Under the pieces are notes generated by a model. The model was not told the DNA's origin, searched no databases, and was given only the letters and a program-made list of their open reading frames with translations. The position numbers were made by a program, and so were the translations under genes. A DNA stretch of 62,104 bases, the filler included, from Dugesia japonica (lineage: Eukaryota), in assembly GCA_001938525.1 (NCBI GenBank). It is 5 parts of 5 records of this genome, joined end to end, with 100 filler letters (N's around TTAATTAATTAA, not from the genome) between each part and the next. Parts side by side here need not be neighbours in the genome. Positions count along the whole stretch, not along the records: positions 20,213 to 29,764 come from MQRL01641612.1; 4 more parts are not named here. One strand, written 5' to 3'. Below, one piece after another: positions 9,177-58,434 of the stretch (positions are counted from its first letter, which is position 1; each line of letters begins with the position of its first letter).

Positions 9177-9276
9177 NNNNNNNNNNNNNNNNNNNNNNNN
9201 NNNNNNNNNNNNNNNNNNNNTTAATTAATTAANNNNNNNNNNNNNNNNNNNNNNNNNNNNNNNNNNNNNNNNNNNN
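9177..9276. other. Artificial scaffold spacer N44-TTAATTAATTAA-N44
   Basis: Exactly 100 bp with a six-frame stop 12-mer; identical spacers at 20113, 29765 and 52392. Confidence 0.95.
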
Positions 9277-12229
9277 CTATTTTATAAAAAATTAAAATAA
9301 TAAATTACACAGATAATAAATTACAAATTTAGTAAATAAAAAATTATTACCATTCCAAAAAATCTTACTATAAAATTTTTAATATTTCGCATAAACTCCA
9401 ATATTATTTAAACAAAAACTAAAACTAAATTAACAGTTATAATTTAAAAATTAATTAATTCACAAAACTCAAACTATTAAAAGACAGTATATCTCACAAC
9501 AATTATTGTGAGAATAATTGTTGGACTTAAACATTGATCGCTTTTGAGATTTCATTAAAATATAGAAAAAGCTTCAATCGAAGCCTTTTCTTCATTTTAA
9601 TAATAATAGTTTACCTGATAATAAATTAGTATCTTTATCAAATTTTGAAACTCAGAATCTATTTGATAAATTCCCTCTATTCAAAGAATTATTCTTCGTT
9701 TAAACTCTAAATTCATCTATGGTTGAATTGATTGAAACTCTTAAATCAAAGGATGAGTTCTTAAATGATATTTTCTTTGAAAATAGTAAATTTATTCGTG
9801 TATCGAAATCTTTCTTTTCATCCGTTGGTTCATCAGACATTTTGTTGGACTTGAGACAATTTAATTCAATTGAAATGCATCATAATGTTGATGAATTAAA
9901 ATCTAATTTATTCATTTTGAACAATAATAAAAATTAATTGAATTGATTTTTTACTTAAACTGTTTAAATTAAAAAATTTCATAAAGCCAGTATTAAAAAT
10001 TGCAAAGTGACAAAAACGCGATTTATGCGTCTGCAAACTGCAATTGAATACCTTAAAAGAGTTTCATGTACCTGGAACATACCCAAATTTTTAAAATACT
10101 ATTGTATATTTTATTATACATAATTTGAATATTCTTTTATTTTCAAATTTTCACATTGAAATAAAAATTTTAATATTTAATTTCTTAGTCAATACTGATC
10201 GTATGACTTGGTTCTCGAAATAAGATATAATTATTGATTATATATACAATTATAATTATTTTTATTTTTAAACTATATATGACGAGAAGGTAGTAGAAAA
10301 TTTATACATGTTTTTCATTGTTTAAGGTTTATAATTAATAAAATAATTAAACCAATTTACACTGATAAAATTAATAATACAATTATAAGTAAATTTTACA
10401 ACAAATACCAGGAAACTTTAATGAAAGTCAAATTTATACTATTTACCATATAAAATTGAAAATTAACAAATACTTTATATAAAATATGAAAATAACAAAA
10501 CTATAAAAATTGAAAAATAAAGACATTATTTAAATTACAAGATTTATTTCACGGTAGTTTTTTTATTTTGATAACTTTTTAAACACATCTGATTTGATTT
10601 GCATTGACACACTAAAAATAAATGCATTTAATTATTTTAATAATAACAAATCAAATTATTTACTTGAATTGACTGATTTGATTGAGCAATCCGGTAAAAT
10701 ACTACATGTCATCGCTAATTTGTCAAATAGAAGGTCAGACAAGTCAAACTCTCTCACTATTTACGGGTTCCTTGGAAACTGAATAATTAATATCGACATA
10801 CTCCATCTTACTATATATAATTTTATCAATATTCATTGTCAATAAGTTTTACATTATAATTTCCGTATATGATATTATTTAACATCAAAATCGATTATTC
10901 ATACATACATACATATAGATAAAAATTTTCACGACATCATTGGGTCAAAGATCGTACAAAATGTTAATTAATCACACATATTAAACAATGTAAAGCATTA
11001 TAAATCACGTACACATATGAATAGTTACTATATAAACCAAAATAATTAGCAGATTTTCATTTATAAAAATGCATGAATCGAACGATAGTTCAATAACCAT
11101 TAGTTTCGAATCAAAGAAGACCTACTTCGACAGGCCAATAACTTATTAGTTTCAAGTAAAATTTACTTTTATCATTATAATAATTATTTTTTCATTTAGA
11201 AACAAGTAAAAATACAAAAATCAAAATACAGTTTACAGTTAACCAACATTAGAATCGCTGATCAAACGAATTAGTTGACTGTTTCAAATTGAAAATTTCA
11301 AGTTAACAATTGTAATTGAATGTTTTTAATGTTGTACTGTAAATGCTTCATTTCTATTGGTTTCTTGCATCCCATGATTCTACAATTTTCTAATTTAAAG
11401 AAAATAATCGTATACTTTCCATTTTTATCAAAATCTTGTGATGGTTTACTTATCGGAAATATCATTTTGTTGATCACATTTTGAAATTCTTGTCCTTTAT
11501 TATCAATAATAGCAATCATTACGATTAATAGCTTTCAAATATGTGCTTTATTGTAAGTAATTTGTTTAAACAATATAATTAATTAAATAAGGTAATTAAT
11601 TATCAATTTTTAAAATGAATAAATTTAAAAAATGATGCTGTTTATCAAATTGTTGGTAGTGAAAATTCTGTTTGTATGAAAATTTATTGAAATAAAATTT
11701 ATTTAAATCAAAATTCAACATAATATAGTAATATATAAGGGCAGATAAAGAAAATTGATTGACTCAGTCAGAGTTTAGTGATATAAAAATGACAATTATA
11801 AATGTATTAGATGATAGTTGGATTAAGAGATTAAAACTAGGCGATGTGATTCTTGTCAATGATCTGTATCAGAAAGCAATCAAGGAAAATGACTTTAACA
11901 ACTTATTTACAAAGATATCAAGTCATTACTCAAAATCTATTTCATCAAGGAAGGGTGAACTACACGCTAATTGTGCAAAGATAAACAAAGCCTGTCTTTA
12001 AAGCCGGAAAATCATCCAGAAGACTTTACATCAAAATGCAAAGTGACAAAAACGCGATTTATGCGTCTGCAAACTGCAATTGAATACCTTAAAAGAGTTT
12101 CATGTATCAGGAACATACATGAAACCAGGTTTGGCCAGCAAATTGCTGTAAAAAACAACAAAAAAGGAAGACACTAAGAAGAAATAGCACAAAAAACCAA
12201 CCTTGGAAGGGGAACCCTATGAATTTAAT

Positions 12230-14082
12230 TATCCACAATGGACTCACCATTGCTGATATCCTTTATAATAAATATTTCAAAGTCAGCACAATTTCCTTGT
12301 CCATCGTGAAATAGCCAATTCTTTGTAGAACAGGCAATGCAGATTCTTATACTGGCAAGTGCAAATTTCCTTATAACATGTTTCAGAACAGACTCATTTT
12401 CAACACACCATGATCCCAGACATTCAACTAAGATCGTCTCAAGGTAGACATTCCAATTTGGAAGATTACATTTGATATCTTCCTGAGTGGTGTTTATTTC
12501 CTGATATTGTTGTCTCTAGCCAATTTAATATTGTTAGAAGTGTCATAAGGAACTTTCACATCCAGCAATATTATCTTTCTACTTTCCACATTTATTAGTT
12601 GTAAATCGACTTGATCAGTACGGTTCACAAATTTTCATAACCGGTCAACAATAACTCTGAAACTCGTATTATGGCGGACAACGTCCGCAAGAAGTTCCAG
12701 AACATCATTGTGACACCCAATGCAAAAGGTCGAAGATAAACCGCAGTAACAAAGAACATGGGCTTGGGTTTCAACATAAAGGGAACATTTTCTGCAGACT
12801 TTATTTTCTAGACCAAAATTAGATCCAACAGAAATAGACCCTATGTATGAAACGCCAACAATCTTAAGAGATAGACTGATAATAGACACCCATATTTGAG
12901 AGTGGGGACGCTCCGACTGAAGTGGAAATGAGACCAAGTTTAAGTTGAGCGTTCCACTTTCTAGTATGTGACCAAGACAAAATGTTATGTAAGAGTTTAA
13001 TCACTGTTCCCTTATCCATAAAAGAAACAAGATAATTTCCTGTAGACAGATTATCAACAATTTGAAGGCAGATTCCGAGCTCATTGCGCTGAAATCTTAC
13101 ATGAAAATTACATTTTATTTAGAAAAGTTTTTAACATCTGAACTTTTGACCAACAGCAATTCGAAATTGTGTGGGTAACATGTGTTTGAAGTCAGTTGAA
13201 GGCCTCATCAATTGAACATAGCTTTAGATGATTAAGCTGTTTGGAAGCATCATGAATAAAACCATTTCTAGCTATATCCCTAACTATTACATCTCGGCAA
13301 ACCAGCATCTTGAACACCTGAATGATTGATTGTATAACATACTCATCCCTGGCTTAAGTTAACCCAACTCCTCCATGTTATTTAAGAGCTGTATATGTAT
13401 TCAAAAGCAGCGTTCAGTGGGATGGATAGAATTGATCTAACCTGTTCCCTGATACGTCTATCAATATATTTAGGTCTTAGCACCACTCCATTTTTGGTGA
13501 AGGCCGAAGCATCAAACTTACTGACTGGAATGTTGAAATTCCTAAAAGCAAAAGTAAGCCTCGATTGAATGAAGGTTTTATATGTCTTGATCTTCTGCTA
13601 AGGATGAAGAATAGATCTAATGATCTTCTCTAAATCTCTGACTGATTTTTCAAGCATGTCTAATAAAGTCTGATGCTGACCACGTCCAAAATCAACCCCA
13701 AAATAACGATAAAAATCCTTATTTAAAATTTTAAGAATGCTTTCATCTCTAATTTCAATCTGAACAAGTGAACTATTTTCCCGACAAGGGAGATAAACAC
13801 ACTTATTCAGACGGAACTCTAAAGAAGACCAATCAGCCAAGCGAACGGCAACGTTAATCATGTCCTGAAGTGAAGCCTTTGAAAAAGCAACCAACGCAAG
13901 ATCATCCGCATAAGCTAAGAAGGAGATGGGATGATCAACACAATTAACTCTACATCCAGAAGTCCTTGAGATTTCCTTAATGACTGGATCAATGCCAATG
14001 TTGAAAAGTGACATTGACAATGGGCAACCTTGTCAGACCCCTCTTCTGTTTGCAATAGAATTTGTAGAAGTCCATTTACAAA
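12230..14082 (-). mobile_element. 5'-truncated non-LTR retrotransposon with restriction-like endonuclease (NeSL/Utopia/R5-like)
   Basis: RT motifs GV*QGCPLS, FLAYADDLAL, YRYFG; LHP*QK (LxPWQK clade signature); CCHC knuckle CRKC...ETQAHVLCYC...HND; RLE motif DL...IILLDVKVPYD. Confidence 0.9.
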
Positions 14083-14345: not shown

Positions 14346-15615
14346 ACAATTGAGCAATTAAAATAAACTTTTGATTATAAAATATCTAAATTTAAAAAAG
14401 CTTTAGTTGATCAGTTAAATGACGGCTCAAAAATTGACAATTCAAAGGTCAAGAATATTATTTCACATCTAAAACCAATCATTTTTCTGTATTTTCCCAT
14501 ACAAAGTAGCATATGTTGAAAGAATAAATCAAATATTGAAAGATGAATTGAAAAAGTACTTTGTACATACTAGTGATAAAATTTNGATGCATGTATTACT
14601 GAAAATCATTGACAATTATAACTATAAAAGTCATAAAGGATTAAATAATGCGATACCCATTGATGTATTATCTGATAATTCAATAAAGTTATAGTTACCT
14701 AAACAACAAACAAAGAAAATTAAAAAACCAAAATCAAGATGATAATCATGTTAGAATGGCAAAAAATATCAGCTTCCCGATTCATCAAGAATTTCGATAG
14801 TAATTGGAGTGATGAGGTGTTTCAAATATCAAAAATCAATACCAATCAGAATTCAATCATATATGTGATTAAAGATCACGAGAAAAATATCATTGTTTGA
14901 AAATTCTATGAACAAGAATTACAAATTATTCTCTAACCAACAGTATTTAGAATAGAAAAGATTATCAGATCAAAAGAAATTGGAAAATATAAACAATTAT
15001 ATGCAAAGTGACATGTATATGAAAAATCATGTTGGATATCATCATTTCAACTATTTTACAAATGAACACACTGAATAATTTCTATACTCTTTTACCAAGT
15101 AATAGTTGTCCACGTATTCATCCAGGTAATAAAGCCAGTATTTCATTATTGATTTTCAAAATTCTATTATTTTGGATAGTCAATGAGAAGTAACCTTGAT
15201 GGAGAGTAGATGTAATGTGTAACAGGTGATGATTATGAGCGAAATGTAGAAATTATAATCAACAACAAAGAAAAACATTGACAGTTCCTGATGTTGGTTT
15301 TGAGTTCATTATTAAAAGTTTCTTTTTATTCACATTAAAACATTATGGTCATGTTAAAATATTTAAAACTTTAGGAGATACCAAAAGATTCGGATTTAAT
15401 ACTTTAAAGAATGAAATAGATACTAATTCTATTATATAAAATCAAGACTTTAAAAACAATGACTCAATTGTTGTTATGAAAATAAAATTAGTTTTTTCAA
15501 TAGAAACTAATAAATTCATATCTTTTCAAAACGAATATTACATATCGAATTTGAATCAACTTAGTCGTTTCATTACAAAACAATGTAAGTATTTATTCAA
15601 AATACTATAAAAAAT
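14110..15615 (+). mobile_element. Second lineage-A Maverick relic (ATPase end, integrase C-half, minor capsid N-half)
   Basis: 14500-15180 is clearly homologous to 3680-4320 (e.g. ttcatcaagaatttc.atagtaatt, ttttaccaag.aatagttgtccac). Confidence 0.9.
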
Positions 15616-16459: not shown

Positions 16460-17342
16460 NNNNNNNNNNNNNNNNNNNNNNNNNNNNNNNNNNNNNNNNN
16501 NNNNNNNNNAATATTTTATTATCATATTTTTCTATAAATAACGCGCGGATTATCCATACAAAAAGCTTATTTCAAGACAAATGGACAATGTGGGAATACA
16601 TGCATCTATTATATAAAAAATCAACAAACTAAATTGGAAACTTTTCATAAATATAAAAGAACATCATTTAACAAAATGGCTATTTGCAATTAATTTCGAC
16701 CGTCATTATCAGGAAACTACAATATCATTAAAATACACAAGCAATATTGTATACGTCAATTGAACATTAATTTTACGATTTAACGTTCATATCAACAAAG
16801 CTTCACCCTGTAGATAATTTTAATAGTAGTTAATGATCATTATAAAATTTTAGGAATTCAAATCCAGATCTGACTTTAAGAATTAGAAATAGAAATTTGG
16901 AGTGTGACCAATCAGATATCAGTGTTGTCAACTCATTTTTATTGGTTCTTTAAACTTAACATTTTCATTCTTGTTGACATTTAATTTGATTAGNATTTTT
17001 ATTGGCTATTATGTAAATTGTAAATGGTGCATGTGCATGAAGTACTATTTAAACAATTATAAATGATCATTCATTTCGAAGATAGTGCTAATATCCTGTA
17101 TCCATAATTTTAGAGAATAAAACTTTCAAAACAAAGAGTTTTTCTTTATTTGAGTAATTATAGAAGTAAGAAACCGCAGGATTCGACTTTACCTAAGCAT
17201 GCGATCAGATTCGATTTAAAGTTAGAATTTATACTTTGTGAAATAAACGAGATTAATTGTTGGAAACACCAACAATATGCCTATTAACCTTGAATTGATT
17301 TAGTTAATTATTTACAATTGCAATCATTACGAGATCATTTTA

Positions 17343-17468
17343 TAGAATTCATTTAATATAAAAGCTTTGATCAAAATTTAGGTTTTAATTATTGATATTG
17401 GATAACAATTCGATATCAATAATTAAAACCTAAATTTTGATCAAAGCTTTTACATTAAATGAATTCTA
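17343..17468. repeat. Near-perfect palindrome (56-bp arms, 14-nt loop)
   Basis: Arms 17343-17398 and 17413-17468, one mismatch. Confidence 0.95.
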
Positions 17469-17559
17469 GTTAATTATTATTAATAATTATTAAATCCACA
17501 GTAAAAAATCTTTAAATCAAAAAATCCTATTGAATTTATAATTTTCTTTCAAAGCTCAA

Positions 17560-18520
17560 CAATATTACTTTTTCCACTATTTTGATTATGCTCTTAGACT
17601 CTGGTGCAAAGATGACGAAAAGTCTCTACAATAGCGTTACACCAATTACATGTAAACTGATAGACCAGATCAGAACACAACCTTTAAGGAATTATAGTGT
17701 TATTATTAAACATATTTACAACCTTATGGGATTGAGATACAACTCATATATTTAAAGTATCCATAAAAGTGTTTTCAATATAAATTCAAATTTCTTTGCA
17801 GCCTTCAAAATAAGGTAATGATGAAACAATTTTAGAATTTCTTTCTACAATATCACACATGTCAGCACGAGACAAATCACTATTTAATTTATTCAAAGTT
17901 TCGTAGACTAATTTTATCTATAAATAATTTAGAATACATATTTTTATGAAGAAAGATTAATTTATTCACACTCGTACTTGCTTTAACAAGAGTAATAGAG
18001 AAACTCCAAGAACGATGAATCAGTTCTTTAATCATATTACTTTTGGTTTATGTCACAAAACGAACAGAATCTGTAAATAAATCGTTATCAATTTTGTTTC
18101 TATAAATTTTTGTTTAAAAGAAGAAATTATTTTTCTCAATAAGCATATCAAGAAACGGAATAATTGAATCGATCTCTTCTTCAACCATAAAGCCTATATT
18201 AAAATGCAAATTATTCATATACTCATAAACAGATGTACTTGGAAACGATTTTCAAAAACAAAAAACATGTCATTCAACATAACGTTTATAAATCAAAGGA
18301 TTAACAGACAAATGATCATTAAAATTGAAGCTAATGTTAGAGCTAATAGGGAATCCATCGCTACACCACCAACTTGTCCATACTATTCATTATTAAAAAG
18401 AAACAGAATATTTGATGTTAGAAAAGTTAAAAGACCACGAAAGGATTAAACCAACTCCATATTTCCACATAAATCTATAATCTCTCTTAACAAGACATTA
18501 GTAAATAAACTCGAAACATA
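17560..18520 (-). mobile_element. Penelope-like retroelement relic (RT + GIY-YIG)
   Basis: Minus-strand translation VSSLFTNV, FLFNNE*YGQVGGVAMDSLL.LTLASILM, YKRYV(DD), IPFLDMLI and LVYQFTCNWCNA...ETFRHLCTRV*EH. Confidence 0.9.
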
Positions 18521-18821
18521 AAAAAAGCCATATAATAAAAAAAATAGATATATTGATTTGTGTTAAAGATTTTTAGATTTTTAAAATGAATAATGTCAAC
18601 TTAGGATCCAATTACTCTAACTGAGNTTTAGAACAAATTCTCTCTATCAATACTTATTCATATAATCACGATACTTTATCGCATTCAATTAATTTGGTAA
18701 AGTAAATAACTTTTAAATAGCAATTAAATAACTTATTTGCTTGAATGTTTGTTTAATTAATTAATATTAATTAAAGCTGTTAAAGCTATCCAAATAAATA
18801 TATTTTCAAAAATATTATTTT

Positions 18822-20112: not shown

Positions 20113-20212
20113 NNNNNNNNNNNNNNNNNNNNNNNNNNNNNNNNNNNNNNNNNNNNTTAATTAATTAANNNNNNNNNNNNNNNNNNNNNNNNNNNNNNNN
20201 NNNNNNNNNNNN
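20113..20212. other. Artificial scaffold spacer
   Basis: N44-TTAATTAATTAA-N44. Confidence 0.95.
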
Positions 20213-23146: not shown

Positions 23147-26100
23147 TACTACACATTCAGTATAATTACGATAAAAAAAAACATAATATACATTTAAGGC
23201 TACAGAAAGTATCTGAGATAATATTTGAAGAATGAAAACAAAAGAATTAATGGCCAGAATTCTTGGTAATTTTAAGAAGATACAACAGTTGTATATATAA
23301 AGGAATTATTTGAATTGATCTTTTAGAATTTGTAAAATCAAATTTGAACATGCTTGTTTACGGTTACATCGACTTTAAAAAGATTTAGACATGTATTTAT
23401 AACTCAAAACATCACCGAAAAACTTGATTGTAACATGCTAAATAATGATTCAATCGATCTATCCAATATAGAAAAATTACTGATTTATGCAAGATAGATT
23501 CAGACCTTACAAAACTCATTGAAAATTCAAGTTTCTTTGTCAAGACTGTGGTAAAGGAAGAATTGTACTGAGTTCAAAGAAATACACAGGAACTAGAATT
23601 TATTGTTCTAATTATTCTTATAATTTTAACCTTTGTGACTACTTGTTACAAATATATCCTAAAGGATAATAATACCTACAGAAGTCAGCTTTCGTCATTG
23701 CAGGATTTGACAAAAAGCCACTGAAACAGAAATAAGAAAACTAGACCTGGTTCGGAAAATTGACGTTATATGCTTACACAGAAGCATTTGAAGAATTTTT
23801 TTTATATTGAATTCATCTTTTGTTTTGCTTGATTCATTTTCGTAATTATTTTTTATAATTTTCCAGTATTTTGAAATAGTTTGTATTTATAAATTTGTCA
23901 ATATAGATATTTCTTTTTGTTTAAATTTTAAATTGATATTTAGAAAAATAATATACCTATTTTAAACAAATCTGATTATCATTTTTAAAAATATGTAGCA
24001 GAAATCCTAAATTTAATTTTATTAAGCATCTAAAAGTCTGTTAATTATAATAAATAATACGTGAATAATTTCTCACTAAATAATCTCACTGATTCTTAGA
24101 GATTATTTTATGTCGATCATACGATTTTTTTTTTAAAAGAATTAAAGCATTAAATATTCTGAATTAATTGTTAATTTAAAAATATAAATTCTTATTTTCA
24201 ATTTTTGCATATTTATAAAAAAACATTAGATTTTTTTTTAATATTTTAAGAAAAGAATTTGGATGATGTGAAATTAATAAAAATCGAAAAAGTATCGAAA
24301 AAAAAAACTCAATCAGTTTGATAACTTTTAATCAAGTTCTAGTTTGTTAATTGGGTTTATGAATGAAAATTAGTTTTCACTTAACCAAATAGTATCACTT
24401 TTTTTTAATCAAAATTTTATTCAAATTAATTTGATTTTGAAGTTTAATTGCTGAAATTCTAAACCAATTTATATTTCATCAACACAAATCAAATTATACT
24501 AGATATTTATAAATTTCCATTTTAGTTGATTAAAACAAGTTAAATGAAAGATATTTTCAGAATTATTTTAATGAAATAAATAGTTAAACATTTAGGTAAA
24601 ATAATTAAATGCAGAATAATATAAAATAACTGCTATAAATGAAATAAAATTATCACATAAATATTTAAATTTTAAACTTAATAAGAATTTTTGTGTAGAT
24701 TATAACCTCATGTATTAAATAGTAGTTTCATATTGGTATCAACATGTAGATTTATTATTTACCATTTAATGACAGTAGCAATGGATAATTGAAAGGTTAG
24801 AGTTAAATAATTATCCGCACAAACGTAATTCTTTCTTATAAAATATGAAACTTTGACAAATCATTTTTCAAATATTATCTTCTTCTTTCTACGATTTATG
24901 ATTTAAAAAACTCTATTTTTTGGTGTTTAAACTGCAGATTTCTTTTCGTCTTGTGTACGCTTACTGGAAAAGACTCAGATAAAGTATTTCCTTTGTATTC
25001 TGAATTTACATTAATTTTAAATATGATATAATATTTTGTTTCTCAAATTCCATTATATGGTTTGTCATGAATTTGCTTTCTGCTCCACATTTTTTTATTT
25101 TCATTTTTCTCCTATTCCTATTACTTTCCCGAAATTTTCATTTGCCCAATTGGAAAAAGTACCAATGAAAATCTTATATTAAAAGGAACTATAAAACTAA
25201 TTTTAAAATATTGCAAAATTTNTTTAAGTTGGCATCAACACATCAACAAGTTGTAAAGGATTACTGAAAAATTTGAAGACTATGTGGAAATATTGAACAA
25301 GTTATGAAAATAGAATGACAGCAATAATTTTGATCTTTGCATTTTGAAATATTTGATTTTATAAATACAGGTTAATGGTTAACAAGTGAAATTTTTTGCA
25401 AAGATATCTTCTAGAAAACGTTAATTCCGTGTTTTTCTTGTTTTTTATTCAGTATTTGGTCATTTTTATTGGTCTGTTATTTCTCATACTTTCCTTTTCG
25501 TATGTTATCCGTTTGTTACTCATTTTGAAAGGAATTGTAGATGTACGTTTTCACCAGTGTCTTGCGATTTTTTAGTTCAACTATTAGAAATAATAAAAAT
25601 AATTAAAAATCATGAATCTTATTTTATTAATCATCTAAAGGTTTTTTAAAAAAAAACTTATTTATAGCTTATTTTGATAAAAATAAAATAAAAATAGAAT
25701 GTTGAATATGCCATTTTAAAATATTTAAGACATCATTTAGGTTTTTGTATCGCGCGCATTAAAAAGCATTACGATTTTGTTCTAAAATAATTATGTCAAA
25801 AGCGAAAAATATTTTCCGGTAATGTGAAAGAAAATAAAATGTAATTTGCTTAAAAATTTATTTATGTGGGTTACTTAGATGGATGTTGTCATTTACTAGA
25901 CAGCTGTAAATCATCGAAATGAATGAAAAATAAAATAATTAGTCTTTATAAAAATACTAAAATAAATAANNNNNNNNNNNNNNNNNNNNNNNNNNNNNNN
26001 NNNNNNNNNNNNNNNNNNNNNNNNNNNNNNNNNNNNNNNNNNNNNNNNNNNNNNNNNNNNNNNNNNNNNNNNNNNNNNNNNNNNNNNNNNNNNNNNNNNN

Positions 26101-26593
26101 NNNNNNNNNNNNATAATAAAAAAATTAAAATCATTTCCTTATTTTATAATTTATTTCATGTGATTAAAATTAACCTTATTTACGCAATCAAATTTATTTT
26201 ATATTATTTCTTATGATATACAATTTACTTTAGTATGCCTTGAGATTTTCTTAGTATTTTAGTGTTGTTCTACAATTATAAAATCAATAAATATTCAATA
26301 AAATACAGTACGTCATATATAGAAAATAGAATAGTTATAACAACAATGAAACACAAGAACTTCGCATACGCACAAACATCAAACAATTAATCATACAATT
26401 ACGTTAATTTATATTTAATTCTAATCAATCAAACTAAACGTTTTAGTTAATTTTTTTAATAAAAGAACAGCAACTTTGATTTTCGCTTGTTAAAAGAAAT
26501 TTTTGAAATAAAAACATTTTTACAATTGCAATTATTGGACGTAACCATTGATCGTTTTTTAGAATTCATTTAAAATAATAATAATTGAAGTCA

Positions 26594-26626
26594 ATTCCTG
26601 ACGAAGACAAAGTCGAAATATCGAAT
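26594..26626 (+). ncRNA. Minimal type I hammerhead ribozyme (family A)
   Basis: ATTC-CTGACGA-A-GAC AAA GTC-GAAA-TATC-GAAT: full core, stem I 4 bp, stem II 3 bp, palindromic AUAU stem III, AUC cleavage triplet. Confidence 0.8.
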
Positions 26627-27207
26627 CAATCTCAAAAAACAAAAACAATAAAATTTTGATCGAAGCTTTTATTTTAAATGAATTCGAAAAACATTTTGTT
26701 ATTAACAACGAATTTATTTATTAACAGATCAATAACTTTATTAGATAAAATTGTATTATCTGTCAAAACAGTTGAAGTTAATTTTTCTTCGTCAACTGTT
26801 TTCAATGTATTTGACTTATTTTTCATATAAGACAAAGTAACCCTTCAGTTATTCCTTATTTTAAAAAAATAATTTTTAAATTTTAAAAAAAATTTACAAA
26901 TATATTTATCATAATGCTTTGTAGCAATTAACCGAGAAAATGTTCATTCAATGTTATATTGCAATTACAATTCAATGAAAATTCAAAATTCAAAATTGAT
27001 TTTACTCAAATTTTTTTAAAATCTGTCTTCATGTCAAAATTTGTAAGGGACCATCCAATAAAGACGTCCCCTCGGAAGTGNNNNNNNNNNNNNNNNNNNN
27101 NNNNNNNNNNNNNNNNNNNNNNNNNNNNNNNNNNNNNNNNNNNNNNNNNNNNNNNNNNNNNNNNNNNNNNNNNNNNNNNNNNNNNNNNNNNNNTTTACTG
27201 AAAAATA

Positions 27208-27240
27208 GTTCCTGAAGAAAGCTGTGCCAAAATATTGAAA
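27208..27240 (+). ncRNA. Degenerate hammerhead ribozyme (family A variant)
   Basis: GTTC-CTGAAGA-AAGCTGTGCC-AAAA-TATT-GAAA; G12 mutated. Confidence 0.45.
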
Positions 27241-29764
27241 ATAAAAGAACAGCAACTTTGATCTTTACAAGTTTAAAAATATTCCTTGAAATAGAAATTT
27301 TTTGTTGAAAACAAATTTACTTTTGTTTTGTTTAAATAATATAACTTTTAATTATTTTTTTTTAATTTCAAACAAAAATTCTGAAAAGAAATTTATTTTA
27401 AGATGCTTATTTCTCTATTAAAATAATTTATCGTAAGAAAGCAATTGGATTTTTTTATTCATAACTACAGTGAAAACGACTGAGCTGAATGTCCTCTATT
27501 AGTAAATGTCAGAAAATTTCACTCGTAAAAAATTGAGATCAATTTAAAATTTTTCAAAAGTATGAATTCTTTCTGATATTTAAAGTACAAAAAAAAATAG
27601 TTGAAAAAAATTTATTATTTACAAAACTGATTTGAAATTTATTATTTCAAACAAAATATTTATAAATTTATAAATTTTTAAAAAAATTAACAATGATAAT
27701 GTGAGAAATGTCACAGTTGTATCATTAAACATCAATAAATTTATTCAGTTTTTAATGAAAATTTTTTTTTATTTGATGACACTTTGTAGAATTTATCAAA
27801 TTTTTTCTGTTAAAATTTTTCAACATTAATACTTGATTTTTACTAGAATTTGTGTACTTCGATTTTCGGCAAANNNNNNNNNNNNNNNNNNNNNNNNNNN
27901 NNNNNNNNNNNNNNNNNNNNNNNNNNNNNNNNNNNNNNNNNNNNNNNNNNNNNNNNNNNNNNNNNNNNNNNNNNNNNNNNNNNNNNATGTTATGGATCAT
28001 AGCAATATTTCTAAATTGAAAATTGTATTTTGAACAATAGATTCAAAACTAATAATTAATTATTTTCATTATTAAACTACATGATATTAAATTAATTCTT
28101 CGATTTTTGAAGAAATTTGCATAATTTTCAATTATATCCTCATTGGAAATTTGCTTCTTAATCCGAATTTATAAAATTTTGATGTAAAAAAATCGAGATT
28201 CAAAGGTTATAAATATATTTTTAATTCTAATATTTCTTTCTTGAAAATATTGTTATAAATTCAATGTCAACAGAATAAGAAAATATTCATATAAAGAAAA
28301 TCTTTAGGTATTTATCAACTTTTTTTCATTTTCTTTACCTCAAATATTTGTTTTCTTTCCAAATTTATGAGTCTACAGCAAGTCTACAACAAAATAAAAT
28401 CAGTTTCCACTGGTTTCTAAGGATAGAACTTCGCTAAAGATGATGTTTGGTGTCCTCGATAAGACCTTTGGAATGGAGTCAGTGACCCGCTCGTTTGGCG
28501 GAAGCATCGTTGCATTTCTTTCAATGATACTTGCTTTGTATTTTAAATTATTGATTGTTACAAAGTTGCTTTGTTTAAATTTATGGCTCTGTTGAATTTT
28601 ACTATTCTACTTTCATTACTGATGTAATTAATATCGTCGGGATATTAATTATACGAAAGAAGTCTGTCTATTTTAACTACGGTATCGCTTAGTTAGATCA
28701 ATTGTAAAATAGAGGAAACTCGATCAGTAGAATGATAATATACATTTTTTTGAAAGGTTATTGCTAGTTAGGCGAAGATTATCATATTTAGAGTATAGAA
28801 ACGTAAACCCGTACTGAGTTCATCAGGCCTCCACACCATGTGATTCTATTGACGTCGACAAAGCAACCACCACCTCAATTAGGCTACAAATTATCCAACT
28901 AATGAACCACAACAACCGATACAACTCTGTATGACCTTTCTAGCAGCGTAGCACACCCGTGTCATTTATAATATTTGACTTTTCATAAATATTAGTTGTA
29001 ATTGGTTAACGATTAATATCACGATCAATTATAATAATTATTAAGTACTATGTTATTATAAAGTAAAAAGAACTAAATTAAGTTAATTAATATTTTATTA
29101 ATAAATGATAATACAAATGTCAGTGGTCACGTGCTCAATTAATAAATAGCAAAGCTTGTGATTAATAAATAAATNNNNNNNNNNNNNNNNNNNNNNNNNN
29201 NNNNNNNNNNNNNNNNNNNNNNNNNNNNNNNNNNNNNNNNNNNNNNNNNNNNNNNNNNNNNNNNNNNNNNNNNNNNNNNNNNNNNNNNNNNNNNNNNNNN
29301 NNNNNNNNNNNNNNNNNNNNNNNNNNNNNNNNNNNNNNNNNNNNNNNNNNNNNNNNNNNNNNNNNNNNNNTGCTCTTTTTATTTTCATTCTACTTCATTT
29401 TTTTCTATGATTTTCCTACTTGCCTAATTAACACCTGTCGCTTTTTTCCCTTTTTTTGCTGAGGTCGATCATTGCTATCTGTGGTGTGAGTATTTTTCTC
29501 ACATTCACCACACTGACCTCTCTCAGAATATATCTTTGTTTTGTTATTTGGTTTTATGGGAAACTAGTCATTATCATTTAAATGGTTTTCATTAACATAC
29601 GTTCGCTGAATCCGTCTATCTCTCAATAGTAGCACTTCATCTCTAGCCAGCACTAATTAGCTAAGTGCACTTTTTAACACATTTGTGACTTTTATTAATA
29701 ATTGATCTTTCTAATTCCTTCAGCTGTAATATTATTATCAATAATAGTTTTTCGAATTGTGTTG

Positions 29765-29864
29765 NNNNNNNNNNNNNNNNNNNNNNNNNNNNNNNNNNNN
29801 NNNNNNNNTTAATTAATTAANNNNNNNNNNNNNNNNNNNNNNNNNNNNNNNNNNNNNNNNNNNN
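29765..29864. other. Artificial scaffold spacer
   Basis: N44-TTAATTAATTAA-N44. Confidence 0.95.
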
Positions 29865-30672: not shown

Positions 30673-32291
30673 ATTACAGTAATAATTAAGAATATAAACT
30701 AAATTTATTTTACGACCAGAAAATATCAAAATTTTTACAGTTTTGAGGTGGAATGCCATTTATGTTTTTTATTTTTTTTCAGATTAGAGTTATAAAACAA
30801 AATGTTTAAATTTCCAAGTGTAAAAACGATTAATTTACATTGTTATTTAATGTTTTTTTCTCTACTGAAAATTTCTTTTGTATAATCGACAAAATTTAAA
30901 AGGTTAAAATACATCAGCGTCTGGAAAAGTTTTTTTAAAAATTTTCTGATTAAATTTTATTTTGGATTTAGAATAAATTTGTAATTTCATTAATAATTAT
31001 ATAATTAAAAATCAATATATTTTCAGTGGTAGTTCTATTTAACTCATTTTTCAAAGTGCTAAAATCTAATTGTTTGTTCAAACTCGGATACTATCCATAT
31101 TACGACATAATACAAGATTGAATTTTAAACTCATCAAACTTTCTTTTAATTTTTTGTTTGGAACCAAAAAACAGATTTTACTTCATTGAAAAATGAGATA
31201 AAAAACTACCTCTGGACAAAATTTTTGACCACAAATAAATATTTCGGCAGAATTACTATTTTTTTTGTCTTTCCGGAGAATATTGAGTATTTCATTAAAA
31301 TAAAATTGCGATTAAATTAACACTTTTATAAAAATTCTTAAATAAAAAATATAAACAATAACTAATAAAATTAATTTAAAATAATAAATAAAATATCAAT
31401 CACAGGTAATAAATGAATAAATGTTCAATATCATTTACAAAAAGAAAGAATAATAAATTGTCAAATTAAATGATAGATATAATTTTCATAAAACCGTAAT
31501 GAAAGATAGATGCTAACTTATTAGATTAATGTCGATTAGAACATAGATAAAGTCACACATAATTGCTATTTCACTGAATATCATACAAATCAATTAATAA
31601 AATAGACTGATTGTTTTAAACAAGGGCCATTGATGTTACGAAATCGTCAAATCAGGAGCATTGGTTAATTATTCAAGATCGTTTTGAAGCACTTAACGAT
31701 TGGATAGTTATGATTGTGTGCATGATTGTAAGTGATGTTAGTGTTTTGAGATATGATTTTTGATAATTACAAACATATGTTCGAATGGTGATAATTTACT
31801 CTACTCACATGATTTTAATAATAAATTATTTCTAATAAATTATTTTTAATAAAATTTTAATTATATTCTTCTTATAACCGTGGTTTCAAATAGTATAATA
31901 CAGCTTTTAATAAATATTTCTCATGAGAAATTTGAAGTTTATTGTTCAATTTGAAATGCGTATTGAAAACAAAAAGTTTTTTTTATTTGAAAAGAATAAA
32001 ATATTTTCACTTTACAAATTTATGTTTTAAAGTTGTAAATATTCCGATTTGTTTGAAATTTAATTTCAAAGTAATTTATTAGATATCGTTAAAATAATTA
32101 AAACAAATGAAATTTAAATATTTTTAAAAAAATAAAATATATTTTAAATTTTAATAGTTAACTTTTTAAAAAATTAAAATTTTTTAGTAATAAATAACAA
32201 AATTTTTAACCAATGATCTGTAAATTTAAAATAACTGAATTTTTTTTTAAAGCGAAAGATCAAAATTTTTATTTTTTTATTTTCATAGATT

Positions 32292-32324
32292 GTTCAATAT
32301 TTCGGCCATATTTTCTTCAGGAAC
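32292..32324 (-). ncRNA. Degenerate hammerhead ribozyme (family A variant)
   Basis: Minus strand GTTC-CTGAAGA-AAATATGGCC-GAAA-TATT-GAAC; core and stem I intact, stem II decayed. Confidence 0.55.
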
Positions 32325-34190
32325 TATTTCATTAAAATAAAGAAAAAGCTTCGATCAAAATATTTTTAATAATATAATAATTAATAATATCAAATATTCT
32401 CGGTTAATTTGTCATTGAAAATTTTTTAGTTATTTTAAATTTACAGATCAATGGTTAGAATTATTAAATATACATTTATTTTAATGTTTGCAACAATTAA
32501 CCGAGAATGTTTTCAACAAATAATATGTTATAATTATTAACCAATGAATATTAATTTTAATCAGATTAATTTAAATTGTGTTATTACTTCAAAATTTAAA
32601 ATCAGAATTAATTGAACAATAGTTAGTAAAGAAGACAGCCGAAATATTGAACAATCTATGTAAATCAAACAATTTATCATAAGANNNNNNNNNNNNNNNN
32701 NNNNNNNNNNNNNNNNNNNNNNNNNNNNNNNNNNTTTTGCCCATTTAAAAGAAACTGCAAATGAGGTTGATGGCAAGCATCATCATGAAAGCAGCAAAAA
32801 TAAGACTTCCCTAGACTCAAATTGTTGGTTGTTTATTTCAATTTAATCAGTCTTTATGACGAAAATTACAGAAAACTGATATGACTGATAAATATTTAGA
32901 TCCAAATAACGATGACATTGCCATTTANTAGGTAGANAGTAGGGGGAAACAACACACACATTTGTAACTCCCCCGCCAAATTAGTGATGTAATTAAACTT
33001 AATCCTAATGCATTTAGTTAGGAATTTAAAAATTGCATCATAAATTGCATCATTAAGTAATATTACTTAATTTGGTGTTACTTTTCCCTGTGTATTTAGT
33101 TTGGAAAATTTTTTGAACACAAATTATGCTATAAGATTAATTTCATGTGTGAAATTTTACGTAATAGGATTGACTGGTGTTTAATTTTTCCTGTGTATTT
33201 AGTTGGGATTTATTCAGTGAGATGGAATTAGGTCAATTTTTGATTGGGTCAGGTGAATTTGGTCTTAAATTTTTAGAAAAAAATTTATTTGTGAGAAATG
33301 ATTGCCGTAAAATTCTCAGCAGTTTGGTATACAAATCTTTGGACATAGTTTTTCAAAGATCTAGACTGTTCACCCAGATTCCCATAAAAATTTCATTAAA
33401 AAATTTTAAATTTTCATATTATTTAAACAACATGAACGGTTTTCCCGGATTCCTATAGTAAATTCGCATAAAATTTTTTAAAAAACTTGAAAATTTTAAC
33501 AAATTCAAATTTTTACATGAATTTCCTTAAATTTCAACCCAAATTGGACAGCCCGAGAAAAATATCATTCAAATTCACCTAAAACTGATCCTTGTGAGTA
33601 AATAATTACCAAAATCGTCCAAAACTGACAAAATCCGACTAATGTGAGAAAGATTCGACCAATATTACCTAAACCGAGTAAATAATTGACCAGATTGTCC
33701 AAAATTGATTCAAAATGACCATTCCTGAGGAAATATTCTACCGAATTCACTTAAAAAATTACCCTTGTAAGCAAATAATTAACCAAATCTGTCAATACAG
33801 AGTAAATAATTGACTAAATATTTCAAAACTGACCCAAGTTAACCATTCCTGAGAAAAAAATTTACCGAATTCACCTAAAAATTACCCAAATTTTCCATTC
33901 CCGAGTAAGATTAGATCAAATTCACCTAAAACTCACCAAGTTTGCCCAGATTCGACCTCATTGAGAAATTTTCAACAATCTTTCACCAAAACCACCCAAA
34001 AATTACCAATTCCGATTAAAAAATAGACCAAATTCACCTGAACCAATCAAAAATTGACCTCATTCCCTCTCACTGAATAAATTTCCAACTAAATACACAT
34101 GAAAAATTAAACGCCACATTACCACTCAAAAAGCCTAAAAAACTTTCCCAACTAAATACACAGGAAAAATTAAACACCAGTTAATCCTAT

Positions 34191-37608: not shown

Positions 37609-38165
37609 CTATTACGTAAAATTTTACCGATGAAAATAATCTTATGGCATAATTTATGTGCAAAAAATTTTTCAACTAAATACACAGGGGAAAAGTAACA
37701 CCAAACTAAGTAATATTACCTGATTATGCAATTTATGATGCAATTTTTAAATTCCTATCTAAAGGCATCAGGATTAAGTTTCATTACATCACTAATCTGG
37801 AGGGGTAGGGGTTACAAAATGTGTGTGGTGTTTCCCCCTACTATTTACGTACTTCCTTTACTCCAATTAAAGGTATCATTGATACTTTCCAGCTATTAGA
37901 ATTCCCAGCGCCTTGCAAATTTAGTCCGCTCCTATGATAAATTTAAAAGAAAGCACGAAATTCTAGTTTATTTGCAAAAGAAATACAGGCTGCTTAAAAT
38001 TAATTTTATTAGGACTGCTTAGCCCAGAGATGAAGAAAACACTATTAATTAAATAGCTTTTTTTGAATAAAAATTAATTTTATGTCAAATGTTTTTATTC
38101 CAAAAGTTTAAGAATAATTTCAATCTTTTCATAAATAACTTAACACGCAATTTAATTAAATATTT

Positions 38166-38213
38166 ATTTACTACAACAATTTTCGACAGTGTATCTGTCA
38201 TCTTCAGGCAAAC
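38166..38213 (-). ncRNA. Penelope-type hammerhead ribozyme (family B) in a solo pLTR fragment
   Basis: GTTTGC-CTGAAGA-T-GACAG ATACA CTGTC-GAAA-ATTGTT-GTA-GTAAAT; flanks 38130-38275 match 52190-52335. Confidence 0.75.
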
Positions 38214-39926
38214 TGTTTAAACTTATAAATTGAGTATATATACTTAAGTTCAGCATTATCTAATCGATTATGTATGTCAAAAATTTTTAATTTTTAACTT
38301 TCTATCGTATTTATGCAAAATTCAAAAAAATTTAAATAGAAATTATTTTCTTACGTTTATATGTGAACTTGTTGCAACTCAAACTTTTTAAAAAGATTTC
38401 CAACAACACACAAAAATTTTAACATGCTTTTCAAAACCTAATCACAATAAGTATATTTTAATTCAAATTTAATTTCAAATTTTTTTAAAATATTTTGTAG
38501 ATTTTGTATGTATAAAATTAAAAATAATTTGGTAAATCTTTCAAACGTTCTATAAAAATAACAGAAAACATGCATTAATTTCAGTGCATTCTTTCTAAAT
38601 TCTCAAAATTATCAAAATCTTCAGACTCTTAAAGAAAATGTAAAATATTATTACTAGTATTGACAGTAAACTCGTGTATCATTTCTTACTTCTGTGTGTA
38701 TGTATGTGAATTTGTCTGTAACATTTTGCTTATAAAGATTTAAGCTTTTTAATAATATAGATTATTACAGAGTGCACACAAGTCATAGAAGATTGAATTA
38801 AAAGTGAAACTGTAAATTATTTTGAAATTAAAATATGCATCCTTGAGGTAAAAGAAACTATATCTTGGGAAAATTGTAAACCAATATCATTTTAAAGTTA
38901 AATAAGCGTTAGTATTTGTTAAGAAAAATTACATAATTCACAGCGTAATTAATAATTTCATTGAAAGTTTATTGAATATCAAAGTTCATTTCTCAAGTGA
39001 TCTATCAAGAACACCAATTTAGTTAACAACCATCTAAATTAAGAGCAATTGAGAATTTTATTTAGGATAATTTAAGTAAACAATAAGTTCGTTAAAATGT
39101 TCTTTTATTATCTCAAATAATTTTTCCAATGGATCTCCAAATGACCCTAAAATTAAACATATTCCAAAGATACATATTAAAAGTTTGACCCTAAAATTAA
39201 TTTACACTAAAAAATACATAATAATAATATAATTAAACATGTTTAAAACATGACCCTAAAAAAACACATGTTCAAATTCTATCTCTGGGGTCATTTTTTA
39301 AATATGATTCCCTTCAATCTAACATACTTTTTAGCGACTTTAAAATTTTCAAATATTCTAAATTATTTTTTAAACAGCCTTTCACACTCATTATTTCTGC
39401 ATATAATTTAGTTAATGTTTCAAAAGGGTTTGACAGGTGATCCTTAAAATTTAGCGTATTTTTTCAAACCACTATGGAAGGTTTAGGCTGCTAAATTTTA
39501 TTTACACACCGTCATTTTTGACATTTGATACTTAATAATTTATAAATACCCGAAATAATAGTAAAAAATAAATTATATTTTTAAAACTGATTTTTACAAT
39601 TTATCTCAATAAAAAGTGATTTGTAGTAAAGTAAAATTATCAAAATTAAAAGAAATGAAATTTATATTTTTATTTTTTCAGGCAAATAACCAAATTCCCT
39701 ATCAAATGAAAATCTTAGCATTTAAGAAATAGGTAATTTTAGAATTGGAAAATGTGCCTGGGTAAAAAAAATATCGTTGAAAGTTTGAGCAACTCGATGA
39801 AAATGAGTTCAAGGTTAATGAGGCAAAGGTAAAAAATGTTCATTTGTAATAGCAAAAGTAAAAAAGAATAAAATAAAGATTATCAAATAAATTTCTTCAG
39901 TAAATAAAATATTATTTCTAGAAAAT

Positions 39927-40350: not shown

Positions 40351-40834
40351 CTAAAATCATATAATGATGTACAGATTGTTTTATAATATATAACAGATTT
40401 ATGGAGAAATAAAAATTTAATTTTTTTTAAAGTAAAAATAAGGCAAATTTCATTATTTAAATCAAGTCTCTCTATTCATATTCAGAAGACCATGAAAAAA
40501 CTATTTTCATTTTCATAATTAACAAATAATAAAATACCCAATAATCTATGAATACCGGACATTTTAATTTTTTGAAATATGAAAAAATTCATTCAAGCTC
40601 AAATAATAATATTATTTAACTCATTATTCTCAAAGTCTTCCAAAAAATATTTTAAAAATTAAAATAAAATTGTTTCTGGGATATTGATCTAAAAAATTTA
40701 TATTTTTCTGTACTTAAAAAATATACAATGGCAATTATTGAGAGAATAATTGTCAAATGTCACCATTAATTGTTTTTTAGAATTCATTTAAAATGAAAGC
40801 TTCGATCAAATTTTTTTTTAATTTTTTTGAGATT

Positions 40835-40869
40835 AATTCGATATTTCGACTTTGTCTTCTTCAGGAATT
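40835..40869 (-). ncRNA. Minimal type I hammerhead ribozyme (family A)
   Basis: Minus strand AATTC-CTGAAGA-A-GAC AAA GTC-GAAA-TATC-GAATT; 5-bp stem I; the core differs from the 26594 copy only at variable position N7. Confidence 0.82.
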
Positions 40870-41832
40870 GACTTCTTTTAATTTATTCAAGATTTAAGTT
40901 TATATTAGTAATAATTTTTTAATTAATTAATTTTTATTTATCAATTTATTTTATTTAGTTCTTCTTAGAAGGTTATAAGTTTGTTTTTTTTAATATGTCA
41001 AATCTATTCCAGGCTTCTTCTAGGAAATTTTTTCTAAAAGTTCACAAAAAAATTCTAGATCTAAGAGAGATGGAAAAATTGTCAGAAATTCCTATTTTGA
41101 AGTCGGCAGAACCAGCACCTATTCATTGACTTTCTAATGAATTTTGTGTAAAATGCATGCTTAAAATTTATCCAGTTGCAATTGCTACGTTGAAATATAT
41201 TCATGCTAATAGCAGAGACTACGCTTCAACCGCTGGTGATATTCTGCTTGAGTTCAGAAGATCCTCAACCATATTTTGTTTATTTGTTATTAATGATGCA
41301 CTAAAATGATTAGGATAACTTAGCAAGCTGTTACAGTCCTCGTAAAGTAATCTATCACAAGCTATTATCTATGTGGTTATTGCATTGATAACAAATAATG
41401 TGATGCTGCTAGATAGACAAACGCATTAGAAGTACCATGCTGCGAAAAGGGTTGCATATTGACGGTGAACCTAATTGCTCGAAAGATATATTGAAATCCT
41501 TACAACAGTTTCTCAAATGCATTGTTAAATAGTTTAACATTCGCTTTAGTGATGGCGTTGTAAGCTTGATAAAGGCTTAACGTTTTTCATTTCTCATTTT
41601 ATAGACAGTTTTGATATGGATTATATTGTTAAGCAAATTTTGCCTTTTATTAATCAATCAGGGTTACTAGATGAAGCAAAACTTTTTCGTAGATTTATTT
41701 CTCTTGATTACTCCAATTCTGGTTAGTAGGCAATTATGGACATAATTTACAGTTCCAATTGCGTTGTGTTCCACAATTTTGTTAATTAGTGTTATAAACT
41801 ATTATTTCTATTTTGTTATTATTACACAGTAG

Positions 41833-43080
41833 AGTAAATTATATCCTATATTTTGTTTTGATACTTCTGCTCAAGATGATAAATTAGTAATTAATAATGT
41901 AAACATTACTTGTCAGTTAACCAAGGATCCAGAATTAACAATATTATTGTATTGGGTTATATTAAAGGAGACTCATGTTAAATTAAAATTATCAAATTCA
42001 AAGGTAATATATGCAGAGAATGTAAGAGGAGTAGATACTGGTTAAATAATTAATTATCAATGATTAAACGTTGTTAAATAATTACTAATAATTAACCATT
42101 AAAATATTCTAATAAAAAGATCCTAACTACGTTCGGATTTTGTAAACTGTCTTCAATTAAATATGAATGTCCAAATTGTAAAAGAATATTAGGTAAAAAG
42201 AAGAGAGCACGACATAATAAATTGTGTAATGGTGTGAGCGAAGCGAACAACCTCCTAATTAATAATCAATTAATAACTAATGTTCCAATTAATAATAATC
42301 AACTTTTAACTAATCTAATTAATAATCAACCATTAACTAATTTAGAAAATAATAATCACTTATTACCAAATCCAATTGAAGATAAAACTAACCTTTTTTG
42401 CTACGCTTGCTCGGGTTAATACTGGTGGTGACTTACAAAAGTAGAATGAAACTTTTGTGCAAAAGAATATTGATGATTATAATAATACAATCCATAGTTC
42501 AATTAAAGTTAGTTTTCAAAAAGCTAGTAATGATCCAACCAAGATTAAAGAAATAATTACTAATCATAACCAAGTGAATGAAAATTTAAATTTTAAACAA
42601 AAACTTAAAATTGGAGATCGAGTAAGAATTTTTAAATACAAGTATAAATTTGAAAAAGGTTTCACTGCTAAATTGACAAATGAAATATTTATTTTGATGA
42701 AGGATTATCATACAAAACATTTTACATATGAAATAAATGATTTAGAAAAGGAAATGTTTTTGGGGAGATTTTATGATAAAGAATTACAGAAAACTAGTTT
42801 GTAGACCCGAGCGGTGTCGTAGACATTCCACAAAGGGCGAGGGTCTCTAATTGATATTAAATAATAAATAATTTTTTTAACTATGTTTTATTAATAAATG
42901 TCTACTGATAATTTAAGAGAAGTTTCTTGAGAGGGGTCATCAACCTCAACACAAATTTGGAGAAAAAATTCTAGTACATTTAAACACAAAGTATTTGCTC
43001 CTCAATTTTTGATTATTTATTATTGTTTCTTCAGGTTGTGGAAAAAATGTTCTATTGTTGAAAATGTTGTTAAAGGTAAC
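41833..43080 (+). mobile_element. Internally deleted lineage-B Maverick/adintovirus relic (MCP end, ZnF, integrase end, ATPase start)
   Basis: KLYPIFCFDTSAQDDK...ENVRGVD; YECPNCKRILGKKKRARHNKLC; GGDLQK; YNNTIHSSIK...GRFYDKELQKT; SSGCGKNVLLLKML, all colinear with 60050-61920. Confidence 0.88.
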
Positions 43081-49946: not shown

Positions 49947-50079
49947 NNNNNNNNNNNNNNNNNNNNNNNNNNNNNNNNNNNNNNNNNNNNNNNNNNNNNN
50001 NNNNNNNNNNNNNNNNNNNNNNNNNAACATTCAATTTTGTTTGAATAATACAAAATATATATTCTTAAATAAATACTTA

Positions 50080-52391: not shown

Positions 52392-52491
52392 NNNNNNNNN
52401 NNNNNNNNNNNNNNNNNNNNNNNNNNNNNNNNNNNTTAATTAATTAANNNNNNNNNNNNNNNNNNNNNNNNNNNNNNNNNNNNNNNNNNNN
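52392..52491. other. Artificial scaffold spacer
   Basis: N44-TTAATTAATTAA-N44. Confidence 0.95.
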
Positions 52492-58433: not shown

Positions 58434-58434
58434 A

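Follow-up and report, generated by a model that had tools for sequence, protein, structure and literature searches.

Minimal hammerhead ribozymes in Penelope-type repeats are common in animal genomes, and the finding of such a motif is in itself unsurprising. According to PMC4209133, the consensus of the minimal hammerhead in Penelope-like elements (PLEs) has an extra nucleotide before position 10.1, a G10.1-C11.1 pair and a palindromic 15.2-16.2 region, and a helix II as long as or longer than the canonical one is a typical trait. Dimers of one minimal motif tested in the same work had low activity only. The hammerhead of the Anolis PLE (Poseidon) cut only in the presence of protein, and its mutants inserted normally (PMC11167929, Frangieh et al. 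2024); the role of PLE hammerheads is unsettled in the literature (PMC8557442, PMC11167929). The Anolis PLE protein cuts both strands of AT-rich DNA in vitro, and reverse transcription starts at two internal sites downstream of the hammerhead, defining the tail (PMC11167929), a two-site initiation model that rests on one element in vitro. In published descriptions, a PLE insertion includes an inverted 5′-truncated arm and a short duplication, and one of its ends bears a tail of 30-40 bp (PMC8557442, PMC3846280); in one case the pLTR sequence alone was enough for mobilisation in trans (PMC3846280). The defining features of non-LTR retrozymes, in turn, are circular RNA and units in tandem with hammerheads of the canonical form (PMC7229834; 10.64898/2026.07.22.740005).

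We analysed a stretch of 62,104 nucleotides of joined Dugesia japonica DNA (hereafter referred to as the window). It is AT-rich (GC 0.18-0.37 per 2 kb), contains many N gaps and is full of decayed mobile elements, with fragments of RT, integrase and double-jelly-roll sequences; it thus appears to be repeat-rich animal DNA. Two intact copies of a hammerhead-bearing repeat, which we call family A, lie in it:

26594-26626, plus strand: minimal type I hammerhead motif, a descriptor match with a 4-bp helix I, a 3-bp helix II and a palindromic AUAU.

40724-40874, minus strand: single full-length copy consisting of hammerhead (C3 at 40864), body and 56-nt tail, identified by alignment and descriptor.

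In the first of these, helix I (AUUC/GAAU) and the CUGACGA box are followed by a single extra A and then by helix II (GAC/GUC), which has 3 bp and a 3-nt loop of three A; GAAA and UAU come next. The CUGANGA and GAAA boxes are accompanied by an NUH cut site, in which C17 is nucleotide 26622 and the predicted cut falls at 26622/26623. The extra nucleotide between 9 and 10.1 is the A at 26605, G10.1-C11.1 is G26606-C26614, and the palindromic 15.2-16.2 region is AUAU in both intact copies (26598 and 40864). The consensus features of a minimal type I hammerhead of the PLE kind, which the first-pass annotation of this DNA had proposed, are therefore present in 26594-26626. A helix-checked descriptor applied to the whole window gave four matches, at 26598 (+), 40864 (-), 52259 (+) and 38207 (-), against a mean of 0.027 matches per shuffle in 300 dinucleotide shuffles (0.003 when a palindromic helix III was required), which confirms the complete core with stems I and II and the palindromic AUAU claimed for this site. 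The second copy, placed by the same annotation at 40835-40869, is real and passes the descriptor, but lies on the minus strand; 26588-26686 (+) is 86% identical to 40774-40887. The loop 1-loop 2 contacts of a canonical type I hammerhead were not found; the motif is minimal and has no Rfam match. An Rfam scan of the window returned three chance matches at E<=1, none of them to a hammerhead.

Like the minimal hammerheads of metazoan PLEs, family A combines CUGANGA plus an extra nucleotide, G10.1-C11.1, a palindromic mini helix III and a short helix I, and it shares UAU after GAAA with the Nematostella and Schmidtea PLE motifs in the PMC4209133 supplement. In contrast, its helix II has only 3 bp and a 3-nt loop, compared with 4-7 bp in the listed rows of that supplement. 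Among the rows listed of PMC4209133 supplement file 2 none matches family A, which comes without an attached ORF. Neither did the searched supplement of PMC8557442, among the places listed, or PMC4209133 file 2 contain the family motifs, although a match split by a line break would escape such a text search. The family was absent from the literature searched, supplements included, and may be unannotated; exact-pattern scans of viral, metagenome and prokaryote contigs yielded no family A hammerhead. What is new here is a family in which helix II is unusually short and the 5′ end seems to be fixed; the kind of element is already known.

Structure prediction gave little sign of an active fold. 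Minimum-energy folds of the window hammerheads were no better than those of shuffled sequences (z -1.18 to 0.91), the active dimer was absent from the predicted cofold of two copies, and the isolated AUAU duplex was predicted at +1.6 kcal/mol. The active helices had a predicted probability of 0.001-0.09 in the monomer ensemble, and the predicted monomer fold contained a competing hairpin over GAAA-UAUC (26611-26626) that pairs GAAA with the cut site. Given this low probability and the competing hairpin, cutting would need a partner RNA or a protein; no activity is predicted for the family A hammerhead alone, and any cutting would be confined to a dimer or to conditions in which protein assists. 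The earlier statement that such hammerheads cleave as dimers was overstated, since the dimer activity reported in PMC4209133 is low and the cleavage reported in PMC11167929 is both protein-dependent and dispensable.

The locus around the plus-strand motif is one insertion, 26521-26686 (166 bp), flanked by exact 11-bp direct repeats. Its parts are as follows:

26458-26509, plus strand: older stub of a sister subfamily (subfamily B) that hosts the insertion; 26458-26520 aligns with 27240-27303 at 80%.

26510-26520, plus strand: left target-site duplication, 11 bp, an exact repeat of 26687-26697.

26521-26578, minus strand: inverted 5′-truncated arm with the last ~17 nt of the body and the tail, up to 3′ end 2; matches the 3′ portion of the copy at 40864.

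26579-26587, no strand: 9-nt AT-rich spacer at the head-to-head joint, unmatched by the family; contig depth there is a few thousand.

26588-26686, plus strand: forward arm that starts at the apparently fixed 5′ end and stops, without a tail, at 3′ end 1; recognised by its likeness to 40774-40887 and by the loose ends that pile up before 26588.

26687-26697, plus strand: right target-site duplication, whose first 6 nt also match the element, so that its end is uncertain by 6 nt.

Thus, a full-length arm meets a 58-nt arm head-to-head, and the stretch upstream of the ribozyme is the element's own 3′ part on the minus strand rather than a separate flank. As much duplication as the 11 bp was seen at 2 of 2527 random positions with the same span, the edges of the insertion having first been chosen by eye. 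The tail of the 26521-26578 arm is shortened by a small deletion, and the subfamily B stub, as read by eye, appears to resume after 26697. The 166-bp insert contains no ORF, and hence no RT plus GIY-YIG frame of its own; we therefore class it not among autonomous PLEs but as a product that is truncated or non-autonomous.

The ribozyme-less related flanks noted earlier near 800, 9535 and 17343 proved real by alignment, and correspond to three further loci:

768-850, minus strand: older diverged 3′ stub with tail, found by alignment.

9500-9601, no strand: older diverged stub with the tail on a minus arm and a short inverted arm, found by alignment; no duplication found.

17301-17478, no strand: palindromic insertion without the ribozyme core, with the tail only on the left arm and 12-bp duplications at 17301-17312 and 17467-17478.

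The repeats on either side of the palindrome 17313-17466 are exact over their 12 bp; a repeat of at least 11 bp occurred at 7 of 2534 random positions (edges again set by eye). Target-site duplications were thus present at two of the six loci tested (11 and 12 bp), and none was found at 40864, 9500, 800 or 32200-32460. Both palindromes (26521 and 17313) have a left arm with the tail and a right arm without it, and their centres differ (26578/26588 versus ~17405). Three tails (26521, 17313 and 40724) stop at one common base, 141 nt past C3 in the full copy, while the two arms without a tail end at a common motif, 85-89 nt past C3, microhomology blurring the point by a few nt; the tail length is 56 nt. 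The 17313-17403 arm starts at most 1-5 nt from the predicted cut site, a 5-nt microhomology leaving the exact point ambiguous. The 26521 and 17313 loci bear the published signature of PLE insertions, and this anatomy is consistent with mobilisation by PLE machinery.

Insertions of EN+ PLEs (PMC3846280, Arkhipova et al. 2013; PMC8557442, Craig et al. 2021; PMC11167929) resemble those of family A in the head-to-head inverted arm, the tail on one arm, the target duplication, the AT-rich targets and the two 3′ ends past the hammerhead. Family A differs from the EN+ PLE units in that the whole insert measures only 150-170 bp and has no ORF, and in that the 5′ end is apparently fixed 10 nt before the core. 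Its tail has 56 nt, compared with 30-40 for the EN+ PLEs in print, and its duplication 11-12 bp, compared with 8-10 in Adineta PLEs.

The copies of subfamily B are older and decayed:

25260-25385, plus strand: further decayed copy with the CUGA box deleted, overlooked in the first-pass annotation; found by alignment.

27203-27303, plus strand: copy with G12 lost and the 3′ strand of helix I broken, adjoining an assembly gap; found by alignment.

32204-32329, minus strand: copy with core and helix I intact and helix II unpaired, following the tail-less 3′ piece 32330-32367; found by alignment.

32425-32460, plus strand: inverted 3′ piece of a B copy, 92% to 32204-32239 on the opposite strand.

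32617-32673, plus strand: copy with a broken CUGANGA box, adjoining an assembly gap; found by alignment.

Subfamily B thus comprises the copies at 27212, 32320 and 32625 and the one near 25275, with the downstream layout of family A. All four are broken, by loss of G12, an unpaired helix II, or mutation or deletion of the CUGA box. Three of them had been listed, at 27208, 32292 and 32625, as variants with a compensatory change in stem I; an intact G-C helix I exists, but only at 32320, and none of the three passes the descriptor. Across the six aligned copies in the window the helix I pair is A-U in two, G-C in two and unpaired in two, and the covariation score was equalled in 85 of 500 shuffles, so that stem I covariation across copies did not rise above shuffles. 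The A-to-B helix I change is nevertheless plausible as a covariation between subfamilies. A flanking motif had also been reported upstream of the 32292 copy. This flank is real, but it is that of another subfamily, and the downstream flank is present as well: 32330-32367 is a tail-less end from that different subfamily, directly before the 32320 hammerhead. A partial tandem or a nested insertion would equally yield this junction. At 9598-9625 a further junction of this type is possible, but weak: its score was reached in 301 of 20,000 random windows.

As an assessment beyond the window, four sequencing runs, namely two contig sets and two RNA runs (X21 and X22), were compared with 26360-26900 at 80% likeness. 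The family was matched by 21,290 and 19,908 contigs in the two contig sets, either of which may be the one from which the window derives, and these ~20,000 contigs in each run bear out the abundant, dispersed, non-coding family that had been surmised. The summed depth over the ribozyme was 0.9-1.1 million, compared with 7-43 on the left flank, a figure that is not a copy number; from the depth and from the two intact copies in 62 kb we infer tens of thousands of copies. Loose ends before 26588 were found in 394 and 376 contigs and in 277 raw RNA reads. Sequence agreement before 26588 was 0.46-0.48, compared with 0.5-0.8 at the internal breakpoints listed. The 5′ end at 26588, ~10 nt before the core, is thus apparently fixed, as judged from a single comparison with contigs and reads; the low agreement could also reflect several subfamilies that differ upstream, and where the upstream DNA is itself repeated it is condensed into few contigs, which weakens the reading of 26588 as a fixed end. 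Immediately past helix I the window copy diverges from the family, so that copies starting at the cut site cannot be counted by this comparison.

Strand-switch joints at 26588 were the best supported: the switch to 26650 was seen in 4 reads as well as in 22 contigs of one set and 16 of the other, and the inverted joint to 26641 in 4 and 2 contigs, respectively. The end at 26588 recurs in one arm, the partner arm ending at varying positions, and no same-strand return from the 3′ end to 26588 was seen among the 15 of 117 joints listed. The ancestral head-to-tail array that had been deduced from the flanks was thus not borne out: the window holds no tandem unit, the recurrent joints listed at the 5′ end are inverted, and the upstream flank is one inter-subfamily junction.

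Among the variants listed for the contig run X1, and as shares of contig depth, the core varied in loop II (48%), at position 17 from C to A, a permitted change (17%), and at G12 to A (5.7%), the last of these at a CpG; conservation of the core may reflect only the age of the source copies. The common C17-to-A variant, at 17% of contig depth and about a quarter of X22 reads, would weaken the competing hairpin at 26611-26626. RNA reads matching the family amounted to 1,475 of 13,591,480 records in X22 and 83 of 10,544,396 in X21. They occurred in both orientations (637/838), and 92-96% of them continued into unlike sequence. Their starts and ends showed no pile-up in X21 or X22, including the 5′ ends at the cut site that had been proposed as a check, although these are oligo-dT/cDNA libraries, which need not show cleavage. 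Because the reads lie in both orientations, run on into unlike sequence and do not pile up, they show no discrete RNA, and they look like copies carried inside other transcripts.

PLEs that carry hammerheads are themselves present in the window, and their motifs form a third family, C, which, like the target duplications and the inverted tail arm, had escaped the first-pass annotation:

16683-18523, minus strand: decayed, interrupted PLE, with RT to EN at 18523-17483 and a decayed family C-like hammerhead at 16712.

38132-38272, minus strand: solo piece of a family C pLTR together with its hammerhead (C3 at 38207); 86% to 52194-52334, and a descriptor match.

51638-52300, plus strand: autonomous-type PLE 3′ end (GIY-YIG region), then a hammerhead with C3 at 52259; tblastn 66% to P0002.

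The GIY-YIG region 51638-52185 shares 59-69% identity with proteins that contain both RT and GIY-YIG domains, and the family C hammerhead 52259 begins 74 nt past the stop of that frame; in L001, an intact 743-aa PLE relative, the hammerhead lies 75 nt past the stop. Next to the 17.4-kb palindrome the PLE at 18523-17483 (-) is interrupted, and it apparently continues in a weak EN tail at 16879-16736 (E=0.055 only), after which comes hammerhead 16712. A U insertion marks the family C motifs; their helix II, where it is intact, measures 5 bp, and the sequence downstream of them is unrelated to that of family A. No autonomous element with a family A hammerhead or family A 3′ ends was found in the window, and no ORF adjoins its family A and B copies. 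These results show that PLE machinery with hammerheads existed in the genome; family C is a mere candidate for the partner of family A. In the 51638-52300 PLE, the sequence 51880-51990 recurs at 52041-52151 on the far side of a 50-N gap, probably as an artefact of the assembly, and just past the PLE 3′ end in L001 (~2440-2780, minus strand) a frameshifted calmodulin-like sequence was recognised by eye.

An AG ends 2-7 nt before C3 in all eight hammerhead-like copies of the window and is absent in L001; the base rate of this position is ~0.22, and the eight copies come from three related families (A, B and C). The intron of Drosophila virilis Penelope ends at helix I (PMC4209133), and the promoter and intron of that element have been described (PMC2377424). 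The 26588 boundary may likewise be a splice acceptor or a start site. We also considered a spliced-leader origin of the fixed 5′ end (10.1101/2024.03.13.584568; PMC7986045); the printed Hydra leader shares only its last three letters with the element start, and we regard such an origin as no more than a lead.

We consider it fairly probable that the locus is a head-to-head insertion, with duplicated target, of an abundant ~150-nt hammerhead repeat that was copied in trans by a PLE from a short uncleaved RNA. The motif, the duplications, the two shared 3′ ends, the inverted arm and the abundance are the observed parts of this explanation. In the proposed mechanism, an RNA starting ~10 nt ahead of the catalytic core would be bound by a PLE protein, whose endonuclease would cut AT-rich DNA with nicks in the two strands 11-12 bp from each other. 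From each nick, reverse transcription would be primed at one or other of two internal start sites, which lie 56 nt apart, and the two cDNAs would run toward the 5′ end of the RNA, one often stopping early, before being joined head-to-head into a palindrome with the tail on one arm only. Hammerhead cutting would not be needed for such copying; full arms reach 35 nt upstream of the cut site, and their template was therefore uncut. Against this explanation, the PLE-linked hammerheads of the window differ from family A in helix II and in downstream sequence, four of the six loci yielded no duplication, and the tail exceeds the published length. Of the Penelope-mobilised, retrozyme-like family that the first-pass annotation had envisaged, the Penelope link is strengthened by the duplications, the inverted arm and the two 3′ ends, but the retrozyme-like array is not supported.

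More tentatively, and with the balance slightly against it, family A could be a free-standing, SINE-like partner of PLEs: a 150-nt RNA with its own start 10 nt before a small hammerhead, giving almost exclusively dispersed and mirror insertions, in tens of thousands of copies. If so, its junctions record two-strand priming at two internal sites genome-wide, and also whether cut RNA serves as a template in vivo (compare the 17313-17403 arm). In a short, abundant and sharp-ended family of this type, an assembly alone could tell arm starts at the RNA start from those at the cut site, and the sharing of the two 3′ ends between arms could be counted. A similar case is MRC1 of Chlamydomonas (PMC8557442), a short non-coding element moved by PLE proteins, as family A would be. 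Unlike family A, MRC1-type elements form pLTRs and head-to-tail copies, and their clade is mostly without hammerheads (PMC8557442).

The copies could instead be 5′-truncated pLTR stubs of an autonomous PLE family outside the window, with 26588 as a strong stop or a pLTR boundary. This is rather unlikely, yet it is the weightiest of the alternatives: most minimal hammerheads of animals stand alone, which is put down to truncation of PLEs (PMC4209133), pLTRs too may stand alone and be of set length (PMC3846280), and family C behaves in this manner in the window itself, one copy standing behind an EN frame and one alone. Such stubs are, however, hard to match with a sequence upstream of 26588 that is close to random in contigs and raw reads, with the fact that no window copy extends upstream into common sequence, and with joints in which one arm repeatedly ends at 26588 while its partner varies.

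That family A is a non-LTR retrozyme, with transcripts of tandem units that dimeric hammerheads cut into monomers for circularisation and reinsertion, and with the dispersed copies as fragments, seems to us improbable. Non-LTR retrozymes (Cervera and de la Pena 2020; Li et al. 2026) are like family A in being non-coding, of low GC and equipped with a type I hammerhead, in their likely dependence on PLEs and in their many dispersed monomers; they are reported as PLE derivatives with many monomers (10.64898/2026.07.22.740005), and the ~150-nt unit falls at the low end of their published range (PMC7229834). The junction at 32330-32367, in which a 3′ flank stands straight before a hammerhead, and the arm that begins 1-5 nt from the cut site also agree with it. 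Family A differs in its minimal hammerhead, compared with the canonical hammerheads of described retrozymes (PMC7229834), in its inverted insertions and in the lack of any tandem units; there is no array in the window and no same-strand return to 26588 among the joints listed, and copies begin 35 nt upstream of the cut rather than at it. Palindromic inserts flanked by long duplications would also be expected of a DNA transposon of the foldback or MITE type, whose inverted repeats are long, whose duplication measures 11-12 bp and in which the hammerhead is a passenger. Transposases require similar ends; here the two ends of the insert differ by the 56-nt tail, the centres vary and single-arm copies exist. 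This last reading is already largely refuted by the asymmetric ends, and we regard it as very improbable.

Other mobile elements were noted in the window. A Polinton- or adintovirus-like segment at 57915-61549 (+) contains pieces of double-jelly-roll domains and a 426-aa frame with phospholipase A2-like and integrase domains; related integrase-like remnants lie at 3680-3982, 14499-14994 and 42445-42804. A weak, sub-threshold Rfam match to a C/D snoRNA at 60084-60156, inside a coding frame, is likely due to chance. Decayed LTR-retrotransposon-like RT, integrase and gag-like pieces, together with a non-LTR RT remnant, occupy 45472-47608 and 50026-51500 (+) and 12635-14032 (-). The blocks at 9177-9276, 20113-20212, 29765-29864 and 52392-52491 are identical (44 N, a 12-bp AT palindrome and 44 N) and represent the filler between joined parts; the last of them lies ~130 nt past hammerhead 52259. 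Two inverted-repeat pairs, 33163-33265/34025-34191 and 32968-33172/37604-37808, with 95-98% and 86-91% likeness, respectively, may bound DNA transposons.
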